Origin: Armatimonadota bacterium
Lineage (GTDB): Bacteria > Armatimonadota > UBA5829 > DTLH01
Direction of reading: 5' to 3'
DNA: 38,616 nt
Assembly: GCA_038207085.1 (NCBI GenBank)
Contig: JBBRAE010000026.1
Coordinates: forward strand, 1-38,616
Shown here one piece after another: positions 25,721 through 34,890 of this stretch. Made by a program: the position numbers and the translations under genes. The stretch's first letter is position 1. Each line of letters starts with the position of its first letter. The notes under the pieces are model-generated. The model did not search any database. It saw only the letters and a program-made list of their open reading frames with translations, and was not told the origin of the DNA.

Positions 25721-28201
25721 ATGGCCGATCATCCCGGACTTTCACCCGCAGATCTCACTCACCGGTGCGATCCGGAGCAGTTCCCGTTCCAAAGCACCGA
25801 GGAAGTGCCACCTCTTGACGGCACCATCGGGCAGGAGCGCGCCGTAAGTGCTATCGAGTTTGGGCTGGGGATCCAGACCGAGGGGTTTAACCTGTATGTC
25901 GCGGGCCGCCCCGGAACCGGCAAGAACTCGAGCGTGCGCCAGTTTGTCGACGGACGCGCGGTAAACGAGCCCATTCCCCAGGACTGGGTCTACGTCTTCA
26001 ACTTCGACAACCCACTTTCACCAAGAGCGATCAAACTCTCTTCCGGCCACGCGCAGCAGTTCGCCGCGGATATGGACGAAGTCGTAACTGCTGCGAAGAC
26101 CGAGCTGCCAAGAGAGTTTGAGTCGGAAAGCTACGAAAAACGACGCGCCGAGACGATGCAGAACATCCAGCAACGCCGCGACGCGATATTCACCCAGTTG
26201 CAGGGTCAGGCGGCAGAGCTTGGTTTCTCGATAGAGATGACCCCGATCGGCATCGTCACAGTCCCGATGTCCGATGGCAAACCCCTCGCCCGCGAGGACT
26301 TCGAGAAGCTCCCAGATGAAGAACGAGAGCACATCAAAGAGCGCAGCAACCGCTTGGAACAGGCCGTCAACCAGACCGCCTCAAGGATCCGTCAGCTCGA
26401 AAAAGAGGCCGCAGAACGGATGAAATCGCTCGACAGCGAGGTCGCCATGTTCACCGTCGGCCACCTGCTCGAAGACTTGAGGCGCAAATATAAGGCATGT
26501 GAGCCTGAGTCCGAGTGCACGGAGATACTCGCCTACCTTGACAATGTGCAGCGCGATATCGTCGAGCATATCGAGGAGTTCAGGCAGACCGAAAAGCAGC
26601 AGCCGATGCCTGCCGCGGTCCAGGGGATGGTCACCGAGGCCACCGAAGCGATATTTGACCGCTACAAGGTGAACGTCTTTGTGAGCAACGACGACGTTCA
26701 GGGCGCGCCGGTTATCATCGAGAACAACCCCAACTACTATAACCTGTTTGGCAAGGTGGAATATCGTGCGAAGTTCGGGTTTATGACGACCGACCACAAC
26801 CTGATCCGCGCCGGGGCGATCCAGCGGGCAAACGGCGGCTACCTGATCATCCAGGCGCTCGACCTGCTCCTGAACCCCTTCTCTTGGGAAGGCCTGAAGC
26901 GCACGCTTCGGGGCGGCGAAGTGCGCATCGAGAACATCGGAGAGCAGTACGGCATCATCCCGACCGCAACGCCAAAGCCTGAGCCCATCCCCATTGATCT
27001 CAAGGTCATCCTGATCGGAAGCCCTGAGATATACTACCTGCTCTATCAGAGGGACGAGGACTTCCGAAAGCTCTTCAAAGTCAAAGCCGACTTCGATATA
27101 GAGATGAACCGCGACGAGCGACACGTGGACCAGTATGTGCGCTTTATCAGCAAAGAGGTGCGCGAAAAGGGCTTGAAGCATTTCGACCGAAGCGCCGTGG
27201 CCCGGATGGTCGAGTTTGGCGGGCGGCTGATCGAGGACAAGGCCCGCATCTCGGCCAAGTTCATCGAGATTTCAGACCTAGTAAGCGAAGCGAGCTACTG
27301 GGCGGGAGCCAATGGCAACGGGCATGTCACCTCGGCAGACGTTGAGCAGGCGCTTTCTCAAAAAGAATATCGCTCGCGGATGATAGAGGACAAGATTCAT
27401 CGACTTATCGAAGAAGGCGTGATCCTGATCGACACCAAGGGAGCCGTCTCAGGGCAGGCAAACGGTCTTTCCATATATTCGATAGGCGACTACACCTTTG
27501 GGCGGCCCTCAAAGATCACCTGCCGCACCTCAATAGGACGCGGCGGGATAATCGACATCCAGCGGGAAACCGAGATGGGCGGGCCTATCCACAGCAAGGG
27601 TGTGATGATCCTCCACGGCTACTTGACCGGCAAATACGCCCAGGACAAGCCGCTTGTCCTATCGGCGACGATCGCCTTTGAGCAGCTTTATGAAGGGGTC
27701 GAAGGCGACTCGGCCTCAAGCACTGAGCTCTACACGCTTTTATCCAGCCTGTCGTCCCTTCCCATGCGTCAGGATATCGCTGTTACGGGGTCGGTCAACC
27801 AGTTCGGGGAGATTCAGCCGATCGGCGGGGTCAACCGCAAGATCGAGGGGTTCTTTGAGGTCTGCAAGTCCAGGGGGCTCACGGGGCGGCAGGGGGTGAT
27901 GATCCCCATCCAAAACGTGCGCCACCTGATGCTAAAAGACGAAGTGATCCGGGCGGTCGATGCGGGGCTCTTCAATGTGTGGGCGGTCGAGACGATCGAC
28001 CAGGGTATCGAAATCCTGACCGGTGTCCCGGCAGGCAAGCAATTAGACGACGGCAAATACCCCGAGGGCACGGTGCATTATCTGGTCGACAATCGCCTGC
28101 GGGAGATGGCCGACAAAGTGCACGATTTCGGCACGCCCGATGGCTACACCGCAAAACCCCGAAGAGAAAAGATCTCGATGGAGGGGCTTGGGGGGCAGTA
28201 A
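25721..28201 (+). CDS. Lon-like ATP-dependent protease (LonC/AAA_32 + Lon_C type)
   Basis: IGQERA, GRPGTGKN, ANGGYL, GPIHSKG, EGDSASSTE (catalytic Ser), TGSVNQFG.IQPIGGVNRKIEGFF (catalytic Lys); GGAGG RBS. Confidence 0.93.
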   Translation: MADHPGLSPADLTHRCDPEQFPFQSTEEVPPLDGTIGQERAVSAIEFGLGIQTEGFNLYVAGRPGTGKNSSVRQFVDGRAVNEPIPQDWVYVFNFDNPLSPRAIKLSSGHAQQFAADMDEVVTAAKTELPREFESESYEKRRAETMQNIQQRRDAIFTQLQGQAAELGFSIEMTPIGIVTVPMSDGKPLAREDFEKLPDEEREHIKERSNRLEQAVNQTASRIRQLEKEAAERMKSLDSEVAMFTVGHLLEDLRRKYKACEPESECTEILAYLDNVQRDIVEHIEEFRQTEKQQPMPAAVQGMVTEATEAIFDRYKVNVFVSNDDVQGAPVIIENNPNYYNLFGKVEYRAKFGFMTTDHNLIRAGAIQRANGGYLIIQALDLLLNPFSWEGLKRTLRGGEVRIENIGEQYGIIPTATPKPEPIPIDLKVILIGSPEIYYLLYQRDEDFRKLFKVKADFDIEMNRDERHVDQYVRFISKEVREKGLKHFDRSAVARMVEFGGRLIEDKARISAKFIEISDLVSEASYWAGANGNGHVTSADVEQALSQKEYRSRMIEDKIHRLIEEGVILIDTKGAVSGQANGLSIYSIGDYTFGRPSKITCRTSIGRGGIIDIQRETEMGGPIHSKGVMILHGYLTGKYAQDKPLVLSATIAFEQLYEGVEGDSASSTELYTLLSSLSSLPMRQDIAVTGSVNQFGEIQPIGGVNRKIEGFFEVCKSRGLTGRQGVMIPIQNVRHLMLKDEVIRAVDAGLFNVWAVETIDQGIEILTGVPAGKQLDDGKYPEGTVHYLVDNRLREMADKVHDFGTPDGYTAKPRREKISMEGLGGQ

Positions 28202-28239: not shown

Positions 28240-29238
28240 TCACACCTCAAAGTCAGATAGAGCGGAGTCGCCTGCTTTTCGTCCGTTATAGGACTCAAGC
28301 ATAGCTTTTGCCGTCTCCTGAATCTGGGTCCGCAGCTCAGCAGGCTCAAGCACCTCGGCTTCGGCGCCGAAACTGAGCACCCAAAAGCCGATCTCTTCAA
28401 GCCCCGCGACTGTTACGGAGAACAATACACCGCCGTCGGGCAAGTCTTCAAGCCGCTGGGTTGGATGACGCTTGGTTTCGCGTATCAACTGTGCGACTTT
28501 TGGTGAGAACTTCACCCGAACATTTTGCTCCTGATCTCCGACCCACAGCTCCCAACTCTTGGCATAAAAGTTGTCGATCGAAAAGTCATGGGGCAGTTGG
28601 AACGTCTCACCGGTCTGGTGAGCGGCCACCACTCGCATAAACTTGAGCTGTATCGTCCTGTTGTGAGACTTGGAATGCGCGATCACATACCAGTTGTGCC
28701 TTCTGAAAACGAATGCATACGGGTCGATGATCAGGTTCTTTGTCTCACCGCTGTGAAGCGACCGATAGGTGATGTTCACCCTGCGGTTTCGCTCGACCGC
28801 GTCCGCGAGGCATTTTGATACCTCCGGCTCCAGGTCGTCACCTGTAAAGTTCGGCGCGCTGATCGCGTGTTTCTTGAGCGACGCCTGCACAGACTCAACC
28901 GTGTCAGACATCAGCGCGTTTTCGATCTTCTGCCAGGCGCCAAGCGAATGCTCCACGAATGGCCCTTGTTTTTGCATAGCCCCGGCAGTAAGCGCAAGCC
29001 TTACGGCGAGCACTTCCTTGGGTGACAGATCAAGGCGACTGCCGATGGGACGTTCAGCGAGGTAGTAACCTCCATGATCACAATACACCGGGATGTGTAG
29101 CTCAGCAGAAAGCGACTCAAGGTATCTGTAGACAGTTCTCTGGGATCGGCCAAGGCAATCCGCAAGCTGTGCAATACTCAAGCCCGGTCGCTCCCGCAGC
29201 ACATCCATCATCTGCAGAAGCAGTATAGACTTAACCAT
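28240..29238 (-). CDS. HTH-WYL-WCX transcriptional regulator (PafB/YafY-like)
   Basis: N-terminal HTH (LADCLGRSQRTVYRYLESL), I.Y.S...IDPY....NWYV, WCX (WVLSFGAEAEVLEPAELR); GGAGGAG RBS. Confidence 0.93.
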   Translation of the reverse strand: MVKSILLLQMMDVLRERPGLSIAQLADCLGRSQRTVYRYLESLSAELHIPVYCDHGGYYLAERPIGSRLDLSPKEVLAVRLALTAGAMQKQGPFVEHSLGAWQKIENALMSDTVESVQASLKKHAISAPNFTGDDLEPEVSKCLADAVERNRRVNITYRSLHSGETKNLIIDPYAFVFRRHNWYVIAHSKSHNRTIQLKFMRVVAAHQTGETFQLPHDFSIDNFYAKSWELWVGDQEQNVRVKFSPKVAQLIRETKRHPTQRLEDLPDGGVLFSVTVAGLEEIGFWVLSFGAEAEVLEPAELRTQIQETAKAMLESYNGRKAGDSALSDFEV

Positions 29239-30779: not shown

Positions 30780-32810
30780 TTGAGCAGGATAGACCCTTGG
30801 AACCTAAGACAGATTCACCTCGACTTTCACACGCCGGGGTTTGTGCCGGTCGCTGACCAGTTCAGCGCCAAAGCATTTTTCGACACCTTGGAAGCCGCGC
30901 GCGTCAACTCGATCAGCTTTTTCGCGAAGTGCCACCACGGCTATTCCTATTTCAAAAGCGAGATCGGGACCCCTCACCCGGGGATGACGACGCGCGACCT
31001 CTTCGGAGAGGCCGCAGCTGAGGCCCAGCAGCGGGGAATGGGTTTCCTCGCCTACTTCAGCTTAAACGTCGACGAAGTGGTCGCCGAGGCGCACCCGGAG
31101 TGGGTCGCCCAGTTCAAAGACGGCACGCCGGTCGACAGCCAGGTGCTGCAGGACGGCTCGGAGCTCTACTGGAGATGGCTTTGTCCGAACAAGGGCGGGT
31201 ACCTCGACGAGTTCTTCTTTCCCCACGTTGAAGAATGCCTGAAGAATTATCCGATGGACGGCATATTCATCGATATGGCGGGGTACCTCCCAGGCAGCTG
31301 CTTTTGCGAGGCATGCGTCTCGGCGATGCGCGCGGAGGGCCTTGACCCCGACAACTCGATCGACCACAACAAGTTTAACTCAGCCAACATGCAGGCCTTC
31401 GCCGGGAGGCTCCGAGAGGTCATGGACCGCCACAGGTCGGGGATGCGCCTTGAGATCGGCTGCTTCAACGCCTGGGGCGAAGCGAGGAAAGCCCTGGGGA
31501 CGATCTCCGAGTTCTACGTCGAGTCGCTTTCTTACCAGACGGGCTGGTTCAACTTTCCTGTGATGGGCCGCTACGTCTCCAACACGGGTGTCCCTGTGAC
31601 GGGTATGACGGGCAGGTTCCTCAAGAATTGGGGCGACTTTGGGACGGTGCTTTCCGCGCATCAGATGAAGCTTCAGGTCGGCCAGCATCTCTCCATCGGC
31701 GCAAGCTGCACCGTGGGCGACCACCTGCACCCCTCAGGTAGGCTTGAAAAGGCCGTGTACGACGTAGTCGGCCAGGCGTTCTCTCATGTGGAGCGGCTTC
31801 AGCCTTACTGTTCGGGTATGGAGCGCTCGCGCGAGGTTGCGATATTGATCCCCGAGGGGATAGAGTCAAACACCGCCGTCGGAACCGAAAAAGTCGGGGC
31901 GATCGACGTCTGGGACTGTGTCTACGGCGCGGGCAAGCTCTTTATGGAGGAACACCTGCAGTGGGACGTGCTAGACCCCAGCATGTCGCTCCACGGCCTC
32001 ACCGCCGCAGTCTTGATTCATCCCTATTTGACGACCGAATATATAGATAAGCTTGAGGTGTTTGTAACCGGTGGCGGCACGCTCATCGTCGACGCAAACG
32101 GCATCCTCGCGCCCGAGTCCATCGCGCAGAGATGGAACGAGTTTATCGGCGTGACCTCCGCGAAGATCAGCGAGCACCCCGGCTCGTTCTACCGAACGCT
32201 CGACCCAGCGATTGGGGCGGGGCTTCCCGATATGGCGAACTACGTGCACGCGCCGGGCGTCGAGATCGAATCCGCCGAGGGTTCCGAAGTCCTCGCAAGG
32301 GTAATAAACTCCCCCTGTGTGCGCTCCCGCGAGCACTTCTACGGCCACTTCCACGGGGCCGATATGGTAGAGGCGGGTCCTGCGATAACCTCAGTCACCC
32401 GAGGGGCGGGCAAGGTAATCGTGCTCTCGCAGGCGATCTTCGCCGCATACCTAAACACCGGCTACCACGCCCACCGGACGCTTCTTTCGAACATCCTAAG
32501 CGCCGCCATCCCTGACACGCTCATCAAGACCGACGCGCCGACGATTATGGAGATCACCGCAGGCAAAAAGGGTGGCCGCACCGTCCTGCAGTTCCTGAGC
32601 TTCATAGCCGACCGCCGCCACCGCTACTCGTTCGAGTCGATCAACGAGCCGATCCCGCAGAGCATAACGGTAGAGCTTCGCACCGACAAGCCCATAACGC
32701 GTCTGTTCGAGCCGATCTCGGGGCAGAAGATCACCTTCAGCGAGACGGCGACCGGTATCAAGTTTACTACCCCGCCGGTTGTGGGACATTTGATGATTCT
32801 TGTGGAATGA
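30780..32810 (+). CDS. GH151/GHL6-like glycoside hydrolase (putative alpha-L-fucosidase) with trimerisation-type domain
   Basis: RQIHLDFHT, FAKCHHGYSYF, DGIFID, VESL, GMTGRF..NWGDFG, VGDHLHPSG; TTG start after AAAGGA. Confidence 0.8.
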   Translation: MSRIDPWNLRQIHLDFHTPGFVPVADQFSAKAFFDTLEAARVNSISFFAKCHHGYSYFKSEIGTPHPGMTTRDLFGEAAAEAQQRGMGFLAYFSLNVDEVVAEAHPEWVAQFKDGTPVDSQVLQDGSELYWRWLCPNKGGYLDEFFFPHVEECLKNYPMDGIFIDMAGYLPGSCFCEACVSAMRAEGLDPDNSIDHNKFNSANMQAFAGRLREVMDRHRSGMRLEIGCFNAWGEARKALGTISEFYVESLSYQTGWFNFPVMGRYVSNTGVPVTGMTGRFLKNWGDFGTVLSAHQMKLQVGQHLSIGASCTVGDHLHPSGRLEKAVYDVVGQAFSHVERLQPYCSGMERSREVAILIPEGIESNTAVGTEKVGAIDVWDCVYGAGKLFMEEHLQWDVLDPSMSLHGLTAAVLIHPYLTTEYIDKLEVFVTGGGTLIVDANGILAPESIAQRWNEFIGVTSAKISEHPGSFYRTLDPAIGAGLPDMANYVHAPGVEIESAEGSEVLARVINSPCVRSREHFYGHFHGADMVEAGPAITSVTRGAGKVIVLSQAIFAAYLNTGYHAHRTLLSNILSAAIPDTLIKTDAPTIMEITAGKKGGRTVLQFLSFIADRRHRYSFESINEPIPQSITVELRTDKPITRLFEPISGQKITFSETATGIKFTTPPVVGHLMILVE

Positions 32811-32960
32811 GGCTGTATGTTGGCTACGACTTGACGCGTTTTCGAGGTGAAGATCAATCAATATAGTTGTCGCAGCAGATATCTGTGCCTAAAGAAGGAG
32901 TCGCTAACTGACGATTATATTTAATGGGTATGGGTACGGGTATACTGGTATTGTTCAGTG

Positions 32961-32990
32961 TTGACTATTCCCCATTTGCTTTGGTATAGT
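32961..32990 (+). promoter_or_regulatory. Sigma70-type promoter of the three-gene module
   Basis: TTGACT-N18-TATAGT with extended -10 TG. Confidence 0.6.
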
Positions 32991-33027
32991 GAGCCTTAAT
33001 GTCATTGAACAACGGGATGTTAGCGCA

Positions 33028-33657
33028 GTGAGTGCTTTTTCATTCAATCTAATACAGGCTAATATTGTGGTCTTGGCGGATTCGTTTAACCCCAGTATTG
33101 CCACGAAGGATTGGTTACGGGACAATCTCATTCACGAAGAGCCTCCTGTATTTATCAACACGCCTCTTGTGTCCGTGTTTGAGACACCTGAGGTGCATTT
33201 ATTGATAGATCAGTCCCGCCTGCAACTGACATTCAAGATTCTTGATTCAAACGTAATGCAGAAATGGGTTAAGCTGGTTGCATATTATGTTGAACTTCTT
33301 CCACACACACCATACAAGGCCGTGGGTTTCAATTTCGTGTGGGAGGTGATTCCGCCGACATTGCAGTCTGGCACTGTTACCTGCTACGATAGGTGCTCGT
33401 GTGGGGAAACGAACTGGGAAAGTGTTTTTGACGAATATTCCAGTGAGCCGAATGTTCTCGGGCGTCGTGGTGAAGCAGTGATCAGACTGGGAGTCGAGCC
33501 ATCACTTGATATTGGCAATTCTAGGATAACCACTGTGAACTTTCACTATAATTATCAGAATGCGGAACGCATATCTGAGGCCATCGGGGGCTTACTTGAT
33601 GCTGTTTCAGATTCACGTAATTTCGTAACAGCGATTTTTCCGGAGAATGTGGAATGA
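33028..33657 (+). CDS. Hypothetical protein, TIGR04255-like (module gene 1)
   Basis: Motifs IVV...FNPSI...WL and LPHTPYKAVGFNF. The track start at 32989 overlaps the -10 box, so GTG at 33028 is preferred. Confidence 0.65.
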   Translation: MSAFSFNLIQANIVVLADSFNPSIATKDWLRDNLIHEEPPVFINTPLVSVFETPEVHLLIDQSRLQLTFKILDSNVMQKWVKLVAYYVELLPHTPYKAVGFNFVWEVIPPTLQSGTVTCYDRCSCGETNWESVFDEYSSEPNVLGRRGEAVIRLGVEPSLDIGNSRITTVNFHYNYQNAERISEAIGGLLDAVSDSRNFVTAIFPENVE

Positions 33658-34175
33658 TTTCAACTCCTGCAGGAGCGTCGCTAACGGCTGATATGATCAC
33701 AGAGATAAGAAAAGCAGAGACAGCGGCTTTGGTGCGTCGCATTGATACCGGCATAGATCCCTGTGGAGGGTATCCGAACTTCTCCGTTCACGAAGAGCCA
33801 TACTGGCAGAGTACGCGTGGGTGCCATTACTCCAATAGCGCAAGGTTGCTGGATCAACTGAGCGTTTATGGCGGCACTGCTCTTTCTGAGGTTCACGAAT
33901 CTACAGGAATGGTGACTACTACATCAAAAAGTAGTTCGGAGGAGTGTACTGTGGGTACCGCTAGTCTTGGGCCGGCATCAGTGGTTTCTTCAGGTGAAGT
34001 TGGGGCAGGTGGGGGTGGTTCTCTGGAAATTTTTGACGGTGCTGAGACAGAGATATTGGATTGGGATGCTTACTTGGCTGCTTCGCCAGTGTTGCGTACG
34101 AGGCAGGTAAAGGCGAAATTACGGAAAATTGTGGCTCCAAAACCTCTACCGATAGATGACGTGGCGGCGTGGTAG
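33654..34175 (+). CDS. Hypothetical protein with Ser/Thr/Gly-rich low-complexity middle (module gene 2)
   Basis: ATGA overlap with gene 1; fills the gap to gene 3; true start uncertain. Confidence 0.6.
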   Translation: MISTPAGASLTADMITEIRKAETAALVRRIDTGIDPCGGYPNFSVHEEPYWQSTRGCHYSNSARLLDQLSVYGGTALSEVHESTGMVTTTSKSSSEECTVGTASLGPASVVSSGEVGAGGGGSLEIFDGAETEILDWDAYLAASPVLRTRQVKAKLRKIVAPKPLPIDDVAAW

Positions 34176-34182
34176 GCAGTGG

Positions 34183-34719
34183 ATGAGTGATAAGGATTAT
34201 CCGTGGTATATCTCCGTTGAGGGGGATGAGATACGACAAGGTGATATATTGCTTGAGTGTCCTCTGATCTTTCCTCCCAATAATCTAGCTTGCGATTCTC
34301 TGGATGAGATTGAGTTGGATGTTGCTTATCTTGACGTGATCGTAGTCTCGCAGAGTTGCGATCTTGTTAAAGGGCGAGAAAAGCTGGAGTATGTTTTGCT
34401 TTGCTCGCTGACCCCTCTATCTGCTCACAAACAAGGCGAACTCTCCACTCCCAAGGGGAGAGAGAATGCCAGGCGAGGTTATCTGCCCGGAGTGCATATG
34501 TTGAATTCATGCCAAGCATCTGACATGGAGCGGGAAATATCAATTGTAGATTTTAGGCGTATCTACAGTTTACCGATAGGTCTGATACGAGAAGTTGCTT
34601 CCAAGGCAGGACCGCGATTGCGTTTGCTTCCGCCATATCGGGAGCATATGTCTCAGTCACTAGCTCGGTATTTTATGCGAGTTGGTTTGCCAGCTGATAT
34701 CCAACCTTTTGGCTCATAG
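34183..34719 (+). CDS. Hypothetical protein with QGDIL / SQSCDL motifs, possible MazF/PemK-like fold (module gene 3)
   Basis: RQGDIL, VIVVSQSCDL, VLLC.L.P, IVDFRRIYSLP, LLPPYREHMSQSLARYFMRVGLP; ATG 7 nt after the gene 2 stop. Confidence 0.7.
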   Translation: MSDKDYPWYISVEGDEIRQGDILLECPLIFPPNNLACDSLDEIELDVAYLDVIVVSQSCDLVKGREKLEYVLLCSLTPLSAHKQGELSTPKGRENARRGYLPGVHMLNSCQASDMEREISIVDFRRIYSLPIGLIREVASKAGPRLRLLPPYREHMSQSLARYFMRVGLPADIQPFGS

Positions 34720-34743
34720 GCAGATTTACAACATTTCACCTGT

Positions 34744-34772
34744 TTGACTGTAACTCCGCTCAGTAGTAGAAT
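34744..34772 (+). promoter_or_regulatory. Sigma70-type promoter of mfd
   Basis: TTGACT-N17-TAGAAT. Confidence 0.7.
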
Positions 34773-34890
34773 ATAGTCGTCCTCGAACTTTGGGGATGAT
34801 AGCTAAGAACGCATATTTCAGGGTTTTGGCACCACCTCTATGGCCCGCCAAAGCCCTTTTCGGCGTTGTACGCCCTTTTACGAGGAAAAA

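Follow-up and report, generated by a model that had tools for sequence, protein, structure and literature searches.

The window analysed here, 38,616 nucleotides of contig JBBRAE010000026.1 from an Armatimonadota bacterium (assembly GCA_038207085.1), carries a compact module of three genes, which we call g1, g2 and g3, set between a gene for a GHL6-type glycosyl hydrolase upstream and one for Mfd/TRCF downstream. We consider it fairly probable that this module is a tripartite toxin-antitoxin-like system, most likely devoted to abortive infection or defence, where g3 would be the toxin, g2 its neutraliser and g1 an accessory; toxicity, the binding of g2 to g3 and of g1 to g2, and the role of g1 are what we infer. 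An earlier annotation made from the letters and their open reading frames (ORFs), hereafter the sequence-only reading, had proposed a horizontally acquired, possibly anti-phage module with a largely disordered antitoxin and a divergent MazF-like effector. In the literature searched we found no description of this three-gene architecture.

The central piece of evidence is the predicted fold of g3. Scans against Pfam, NCBIfam (20.0) and PADLOC (PADLOC-DB v2) at E<=1, and against PHROGs v4 at E<=0.01, gave no match to any model for g1, g2 or g3, and the module corresponds to no named system in PADLOC or NCBIfam. Yet g3 is far from rare. Of the 4504 candidates raised by a word-indexed protein search, 4396 pass E<=1e-3, and an exhaustive search of representatives clustered at 50% identity found 1493, with 870 at E<=1e-10. 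Its closest relatives are 51-66% identical and about 177 residues long, have no Pfam domain and, where they carry a name at all, are called 'hypothetical'. In an alignment of 74 members (A1), residues Q19, G20, P151, E154, R166 and P170 are invariant, and the near-invariant positions include W8, Y9, D21, P27, Q57, C59, D60, C74, G99, R145, R147, Y152 and R153.

The AlphaFold (AF2) model of g3 built from A1 has a predicted local distance difference test (pLDDT) score of 93.6 and a predicted template modelling score of 0.87. Searched with Foldseek against the PDB, it gave 30 matches at E<=0.001, those listed being MazF-type chains (E 1.7e-5). VIA-align returned 136 chains at Z>=8, headed by MazF-mt3 (9ikd_I, Z 11.9, root-mean-square deviation (rmsd) 2.7 Å, 105/106 residues) and then by the MazF proteins of S. 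aureus and B. subtilis (Z ~11); CcdB (4elz_D) scored Z 10.6 over 99/102 residues, and Kid Z 9.1. The model thereby gives g3 the MazF/CcdB/Kid fold, an SH3-like barrel with a C-terminal helix. The sequence-only reading had guessed at such a fold from the order of the motifs RQGDI, VIVVSQSCD, VLLCSLTP and IVDFRRIYSL, all of which are present in the protein, and the two structural comparisons agree with it, while sequence models are blind to the similarity. Since the Z scores for MazF and CcdB differ by no more than about 1, the fold does not tell the mode of action.

The SQSCD motif stands right after strand beta2, and we take it, without a residue-by-residue alignment, to be the equivalent of the V-V-S-N-D segment of PemK/MazF. 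Cys74 sits on the strand that would bear the threonine of MazF. A reading of SQSCD as part of a Cys/His/Asp hydrolase was dropped, as A1 has no invariant histidine.

The second line of evidence comes from gene order. Scanning contigs with g3 alone yielded 3 loci and alignment-based scans a larger set, from which 91 related loci were kept for the quality of their g3 match (L001, L002 and L006-L094; L003 and L095-L097 were dropped as partial or weak matches). Neighbourhoods were counted in the 55 of these 91 that have at least 1400 bp of upstream sequence. In all 55, a same-strand ORF of at least 60 aa ends between -3 and +105 nt from the g3 match. The first gene of the operon is more varied: it is TIGR04255-type in 30/55 loci (29 by NCBIfam, and L051 by our own profile A3) and a homologue of the window's g1 in 11/55, so that the co-occurrence expected from the sequence-only reading was found for g2-like ORFs in every locus and for g1 in 41/55. 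Ten loci hold g2 and g3 only, with no g1-like ORF in the available DNA, and are preceded by unrelated genes (for NuoC, a histidine kinase or a tetratricopeptide-repeat protein); the remaining four, all viral (L089 and L091-L093), were placed in no g1 class. An independent sample of phylum genomes (1.5 kb flank) showed a TIGR04255-type g1 upstream in 15/29 loci and the window type in 1/29.

Two observations bear on the partner of g1. Locus L055 has a single 375-aa ORF (L055:469-1596) that contains a TIGR04255 domain at residues 33-247 and stops immediately before g3. This ORF appears to be a fusion of g1 and g2, although its C-terminus gave no match to the profile of the g2 tail described below. 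Besides, the g2 ORF has a median length of 83 aa in loci without g1 (n=9) and 142 aa in loci with g1 (n=37; one-sided Mann-Whitney p=0.008), these lengths being upper bounds with start codons not fixed; the test excludes the fusion L055 and the near-duplicates L010, L065, L068 and L075. Taken together, the fusion and the length difference point to g2, and not g3, as the partner to which g1 is tied. We also observed that HEC-01A/B and a type III restriction enzyme come after the L055 locus.

The g2 protein combines a fast-changing body with a conserved end. A whole-protein search recovered only g2 itself among 310 candidates, and phmmer against the neighbouring ORFs found the g2 of window-type loci. 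Even among these (alignment A5) the N-terminal body is poorly conserved, whereas W137 and P164 of the tail are retained. The tail of the window's g2 reads ETEILDWDAYL..SP..R..VKAKLRK...PKPLPIDD..W, and the shared version, about 45 residues long, follows the pattern acidic-φ-φ-D-W/Y/F-D-x3-φ-x2-PP-x-R-x3-φ-x-V-x-φ-x3-G/K-R-x2-P-x-P-x2-D-P-W, or in short form across loci …LDWDA…PPPR…V…GR..P.P..DPW; one proline is invariant in an alignment of 40 tails (A4). A profile of the tail is matched at E<=0.01 by 45/55 of the upstream ORFs, 39 of which had served to build it. The profile misses the other ten ORFs, those of L055 and L072 and of all but one of the nine viral loci.

How the tail is distributed suggests that it moves as a unit. 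Over about 185 residues, the L033 middle protein shares 42% and 41% identity with its counterparts in two operons in which a TIGR04255 gene is paired with a HEPN-like third gene (L147 and L148); it then ends in the tail typical of g3 loci, which is missing from L147 and L148 and common to the g2 of L036, L052 and L053. In a quick maximum-likelihood tree of g3, midpoint-rooted, with 30/50 forks unsupported and read for its coarse pattern only, one clade (Shimodaira-Hasegawa approximate likelihood-ratio support 95) holds all loci with a 'WD' tail, the window included, and the loci with an 'HDF' tail form a second group with support 93. Within the 'WD' clade, g1 is of the window type in 12 loci, absent in 10 and of the TIGR04255 type in 7. 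From these comparisons the g2 tail appears to be a transferable, g3-specific unit. The features that the sequence-only reading quoted for g2, a Ser/Thr/Gly-rich stretch and a compact C-terminus (EILDWDAYL...PKPLPIDDVAAW), were both found; the body proves to be variable and of low complexity and the end conserved, with the class of tail following the g3 clades.

A third line of evidence is what else stands behind TIGR04255 genes. Members of this family occur in 73/401 phylum genomes and g3 in 32/401, and we took a census of the third gene in the best 30 TIGR04255 loci of the phylum. A g3-like gene lies downstream in 7/30, a PIN gene in 2/30 (L145 and L170; E 2.8e-12 and 2.3e-11, both above the Pfam cut-off) and a member of a HEPN-like family in 8/30 (L144, L146, L147, L148, L157, L165, L172 and L173), two of the latter eight scoring above the Pfam HEPN cut-off and three below it; in 1/30 an HNH gene lies further downstream. 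With PIN and HEPN behind TIGR04255, the effector position is filled by classical toxin-type domains. Three further operons (L156, L168 and L169) share a third-gene family without a name. As side observations, their second (~166-190 aa) and third (159-171 aa) genes are alike across the three loci and have no Pfam match, and the middle proteins of the PIN- and HEPN-type operons form at least two families without a name.

The sequence-only reading had likened the window's g1 to TIGR04255-like proteins. The motifs quoted for g1 (SFNPSIATKDWL and LLPHTPYKAVGFNF) are present, and g1 occupies the same operon slot as bona fide TIGR04255 proteins ('sporadTIGR04255'), with a similar length and a similarly sporadic distribution. 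An Atlas feature search with g1 placed a TIGR04255 cluster third (score 0.94). On the other side, g1 has no match to the family model at E<=1 (NCBIfam cut-off 30 bits) and the whole genome is without a TIGR04255 match; profile A3 reaches E 5.4 for the window's g1 and finds three other window-type g1s weakly (E 8e-4 to 3e-3 in a set of 52 sequences), and the profile-profile comparison is not significant. No PDB structure was found by sequence for TIGR04255, and the literature searched yielded no paper naming it or its InterPro names.

The model of g1 (pLDDT 80.9) consists of two tandem beta-alpha-beta4-alpha repeats. Foldseek ranks TATA-binding proteins (TBP) first (E 1e-6), and VIA-align places nothing above Z 8.0, with AdoMetDC, McsB/arginine kinase, TBP and the rolling-circle Rep tied; the best scores (Z 7.9-8.0) belong to a phosphoglucomutase domain and AdoMetDC, and TBP reaches Z 6.8 at rmsd 5.8 Å. 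With matches this weak and mixed, we describe the fold of g1 as two tandem alpha+beta repeats and assign it to no named family. The fold matches listed do not include SecB, and the Pfam scan of g1 is empty at E<=1. As a separate observation, the best match of the g1 model is a viral protein without a name, A0A515MGR4 of BFVD (202 aa, E 8e-11, TMq 0.59, 18% identity), which lies far above the solved structures.

These matches are relevant to an alternative in which g1 would be the DNA-binding autoregulator of the operon, like omega or the PaaR of paaR-paaA-parE, and g2 only a neutralising tail. The order regulator-antitoxin-toxin is that of omega-epsilon-zeta, no DNA-binding domain is recognisable in g2 (Pfam and NCBIfam scans at E<=1), TBP heads the Foldseek list with the rolling-circle Rep also appearing, and the apparent fusion in L055 would look like a canonical antitoxin, whose toxin-facing part comes after a DNA-binding domain. 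Nevertheless, g1 is acidic (isoelectric point, pI, 4.69; family medians 5.6-6.3), which makes a TBP-like DNA saddle less likely, the match to TBP is weak and tied with AdoMetDC and McsB, and the two-gene loci with a short g2 would be left with no regulator. We regard this alternative as unlikely.

A reversal of roles, with g1 as the effector and g3 as a sensor or immunity component, would fit the constancy of TIGR04255 proteins across operons with differing third genes, as well as the weak resemblance of g1 to enzymes (AdoMetDC, McsB/arginine kinase). We hold it to be very improbable indeed: g2 and g3 occur as pairs without g1 in ten of the loci counted, classical toxin domains fill the third-gene position, and the enzyme matches, at Z<=8, are at a level that the tool itself calls common.

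Returning to the tripartite toxin-antitoxin-like reading, the distribution of g3 is sporadic. It was found in 2/61 relatives, the window's own genome counted, and in 23/207 genera of the phylum, with 2-3 copies in some genomes and several copies broken. It is also carried by 12 viral contigs. Over the module (32800-34800) the GC content falls to 0.435-0.505, as against 0.59-0.63 on either side. The GC dip, the sporadic distribution and the viral contigs together indicate a horizontally mobile cassette, and the sequence-only reading, which had noted a module richer in AT than the glycosyl hydrolase and mfd genes and had proposed its horizontal acquisition, agrees on both counts. A comparison with an empty site found no orthologous junction, homologues of the upstream GHL6 gene being only ~30% identical and present in 8/21 relatives (own genome included). 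Searched by tblastn at E<=1e-5, plasmid and cultured-phage collections yielded nothing for g3. Among the g3 copies, four look decayed, being split or interrupted by stops (G175:C8:686181-686840, G340:C350:2295-2815, G266:C33:6540-7058 and G280:C189:40527-41012).

The module family may also keep company with defence genes. Among ORFs flanking related loci, 14/150 match PADLOC at E<=1e-20, in 10/28 loci, compared with 2/144 in the control (Fisher p=0.003), test and control being drawn from different sources and the loci not being independent. The flanking ORFs were taken in locus order from 211 listed, up to 150, with four module genes dropped, and the control ORFs came from 18 arbitrary 10-kb regions of module-bearing genomes. 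The matches include type I S subunits, HmaA/HmaC, HEC-01A/B, AbiEi, a type III methyltransferase with its restriction enzyme, PDC-M05A, PDC-M48B and RmrA. This enrichment is suggestive of an association between the module family and defence genes. The defence-island enrichment that the sequence-only reading named as a check is suggested by the flanks of related loci; the window itself holds no defence island.

Several points weigh against the tripartite toxin-antitoxin-like reading, beyond the cautions already given with the tail profile, the tree, the g2 lengths and the PADLOC comparison. The Pfam models of PemK/MazF (PF02452) and CcdB (PF01845) miss g3 at E<=1, and a profile of the 74 family members found no MazF among PDB sequences. 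MazF cleaves with an arginine in the beta1-beta2 loop plus a threonine or serine. Segment 31-45 of g3, which we take to be the counterpart of that loop, is variable and has no conserved arginine in A1, so that a MazF-like RNase chemistry of g3 is not supported. The protein is mildly acidic (pI 5.25; family median 5.9). As already noted, g2 has no recognisable DNA-binding domain. Homology of g1 and TIGR04255 is unproven, with an hhalign probability of 3.9%. And the neighbours in the window are housekeeping genes, the sole strong PADLOC match being a WYL regulator.

Some of these points are what would be expected if the three proteins formed a non-toxic complex with a regulatory or housekeeping role, using the MazF-like barrel as a scaffold for binding nucleic acid or protein. 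The MazF catalytic residues are not evidently conserved in g3, no toxin or defence model matches the three proteins, the module sits among housekeeping genes, and a common fold does not prove a common function. However, a housekeeping complex would fit poorly with the sporadic distribution, the foreign GC content and the viral contigs, with PIN and HEPN being swapped into the effector position behind TIGR04255, with the enrichment of defence genes in flanks, and with the broken g3 copies in several genomes. We judge the non-toxic alternative improbable and keep to the tripartite toxin-antitoxin-like reading.

The layout of the locus is collected in Table 1. As the sequence-only reading described, the three ORFs are tightly packed on the same strand: the TGA stop of g1 and the ATG start of g2 overlap as ATGA, and 7 nt separate the TAG of g2 from the ATG of g3, another in-frame ATG for g3 lying at 34156. 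This spacing suggests translational coupling.

Table 1. Features of the three-gene module, in coordinates of the window.
Feature	Position	Strand	Description
g1	33028..33657	+	209 aa; candidate acidic accessory; two tandem beta-alpha-beta4-alpha repeats in model
g2	33654..34175	+	173 aa; candidate antitoxin/adaptor; orphan in whole-protein search
g3	34183..34719	+	178 aa; MazF/CcdB-fold candidate toxin; large family without a name
Promoter-like site	32961..32990	+	TTGACT-18-TATAGT, TG extended -10; 10/12 consensus positions
g2 Ser/Thr/Gly-rich low-complexity linker	33900..34022	+	residues ~83-123; read from translation; not conserved in A5
g2 conserved C-terminal tail	34044..34172	+	residues 131-173; proposed g3-binding, neutralising segment
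g3 SQSCD motif	34348..34362	+	S56-D60; Q57, C59, D60 near-invariant in family

The promoter that the sequence-only reading assigned to the module matches the consensus as closely as claimed, but the scanned region holds 5 promoter-like sites compared with 2.9±1.8 in shuffles, so that the match alone is no evidence of function. Its -10 box overlaps GTG 32989, an alternative start that would give a g1 of 222 aa. Homologues of g1 begin about 13 residues after this codon (alignment A2, 15 sequences), and the database form has 209 aa; with the overlap, these make GTG 33028 the likelier start. Between g3 and mfd there is a second promoter-like site (TTGACT-17-TAGAAT, 34744-34772, 10/12); it probably drives mfd, so that transcription of the module would not have to continue into that gene.

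A scan of the window found no tRNA, and no direct repeats bounding the module were found in its flanks. Within the module, an exact 13-nt direct repeat, TTCACGAAGAGCC, occurs in g1 (33131-33143) and in g2 (33787-33799) and encodes H-E-E-P in both. The genome also encodes a second GHL6-type hydrolase (G000:C16:38022-39980), which shares 28% identity with the module's upstream neighbour. About 4-7 kb upstream, a helix-turn-helix-WYL-WCX regulator (28243-29238, minus strand) lies beside a LonC/LonB-like AAA+ protease (25721-28198, plus strand); the WYL protein matches the PADLOC WYL and Cas3c-fusion models, and the Lon-like gene has no PADLOC match.

The tripartite toxin-antitoxin-like reading leads to the following mechanism. 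The effector would be g3, a divergent toxin of the MazF/CcdB/Kid fold whose target may be RNA or a protein such as gyrase. Its cognate neutraliser would be g2, with the C-terminal tail of ~43 residues binding g3 in the manner of the MazE or CcdA tails, while the variable N-terminal body and the linker would connect g2 to g1. As an exchangeable accessory, g1 would bind g2 and control its stability or release, acting as a chaperone or as a sensor of the trigger; once g2 is lost or released, g3 would be set free. The idea of g1 as a non-SecB chaperone, already present in the sequence-only reading, is an analogy with SecB in the toxin-antitoxin-chaperone (TAC) and CmdTAC systems (the CmdTAC paper is PMC11618068).

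A broader proposal, which we advance tentatively and with some doubt, is that TIGR04255-type two-repeat proteins and the divergent g1 form an unrecognised class of promiscuous accessories. Such proteins might gate at least three classes of toxin (MazF/CcdB-fold, PIN and HEPN) through adaptor-antitoxins with toxin-specific, transferable tails, and serve as the infection sensor of a widespread abortive-infection family in environmental bacteria, which would make them counterparts of SecB in TAC or of the Panacea domain.

Compared with MazEF, Kid-Kis and CcdAB, the parallels lie in the fold and in the antitoxin: the g3 model aligns with MazF, CcdB and Kid chains over their full length (Z 9-12), and g2 is small, fast-evolving, partly disordered and encoded upstream, with a conserved C-terminal tail. 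The differences are also clear. With ~60 additional residues, g3 has one more strand at its N-terminus and a helical insertion, shows no detectable sequence similarity and lacks a conserved arginine in what we presume to be the catalytic loop. On its part, g2 has no DNA-binding domain, and most g3 loci include a third gene.

TAC systems consist of a SecB-like chaperone and an antitoxin with a C-terminal chaperone addiction domain (ChAD), next to the toxin, and the chaperone gene comes last. The module shares with TAC and CmdTAC the pairing of one accessory family with several toxin classes, antitoxins that appear to carry an extra segment, and a probable association with defence genes. It departs from them in that g1 is encoded first instead of last and is modelled as a two-repeat alpha+beta protein with no SecB among the fold matches listed, the extra segment of g2 is N-terminal and not a C-terminal ChAD, and a chaperone role of g1 is by analogy only. 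Another comparison is with GajC of type II Gabija, which a 2026 paper (PMC13069673) presents as a split MazF-like domain found by structure only and as the presumed defence effector, acting with the GajB helicase. In both proteins the MazF-like fold is visible by structure alone; GajC has a five-helix insertion and a UvrD-like helicase as its partner (PMC13069673), whereas g3 has no helicase beside it, its partners being g2 and a TIGR04255-like protein.

On the tripartite toxin-antitoxin-like reading, the module brings together a toxin family, a tail-type antitoxin and an accessory that are all new, within the known toxin-antitoxin kind. The family of g3 is very large, with at least 1493 clusters at 50% identity and a presence in ~8% of the sampled phylum genomes, and has neither a name nor a model in Pfam, NCBIfam, PADLOC or PHROGs; that the searches of plasmid and cultured-phage collections did not find it may explain how it escaped experimental screens. 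The combinatorial architecture, in which an accessory is joined to an adaptor with a swappable tail and to an exchangeable toxin, would extend the logic of TAC systems to a new accessory fold, and the module would supply the orphan family TIGR04255 with its first functional context.

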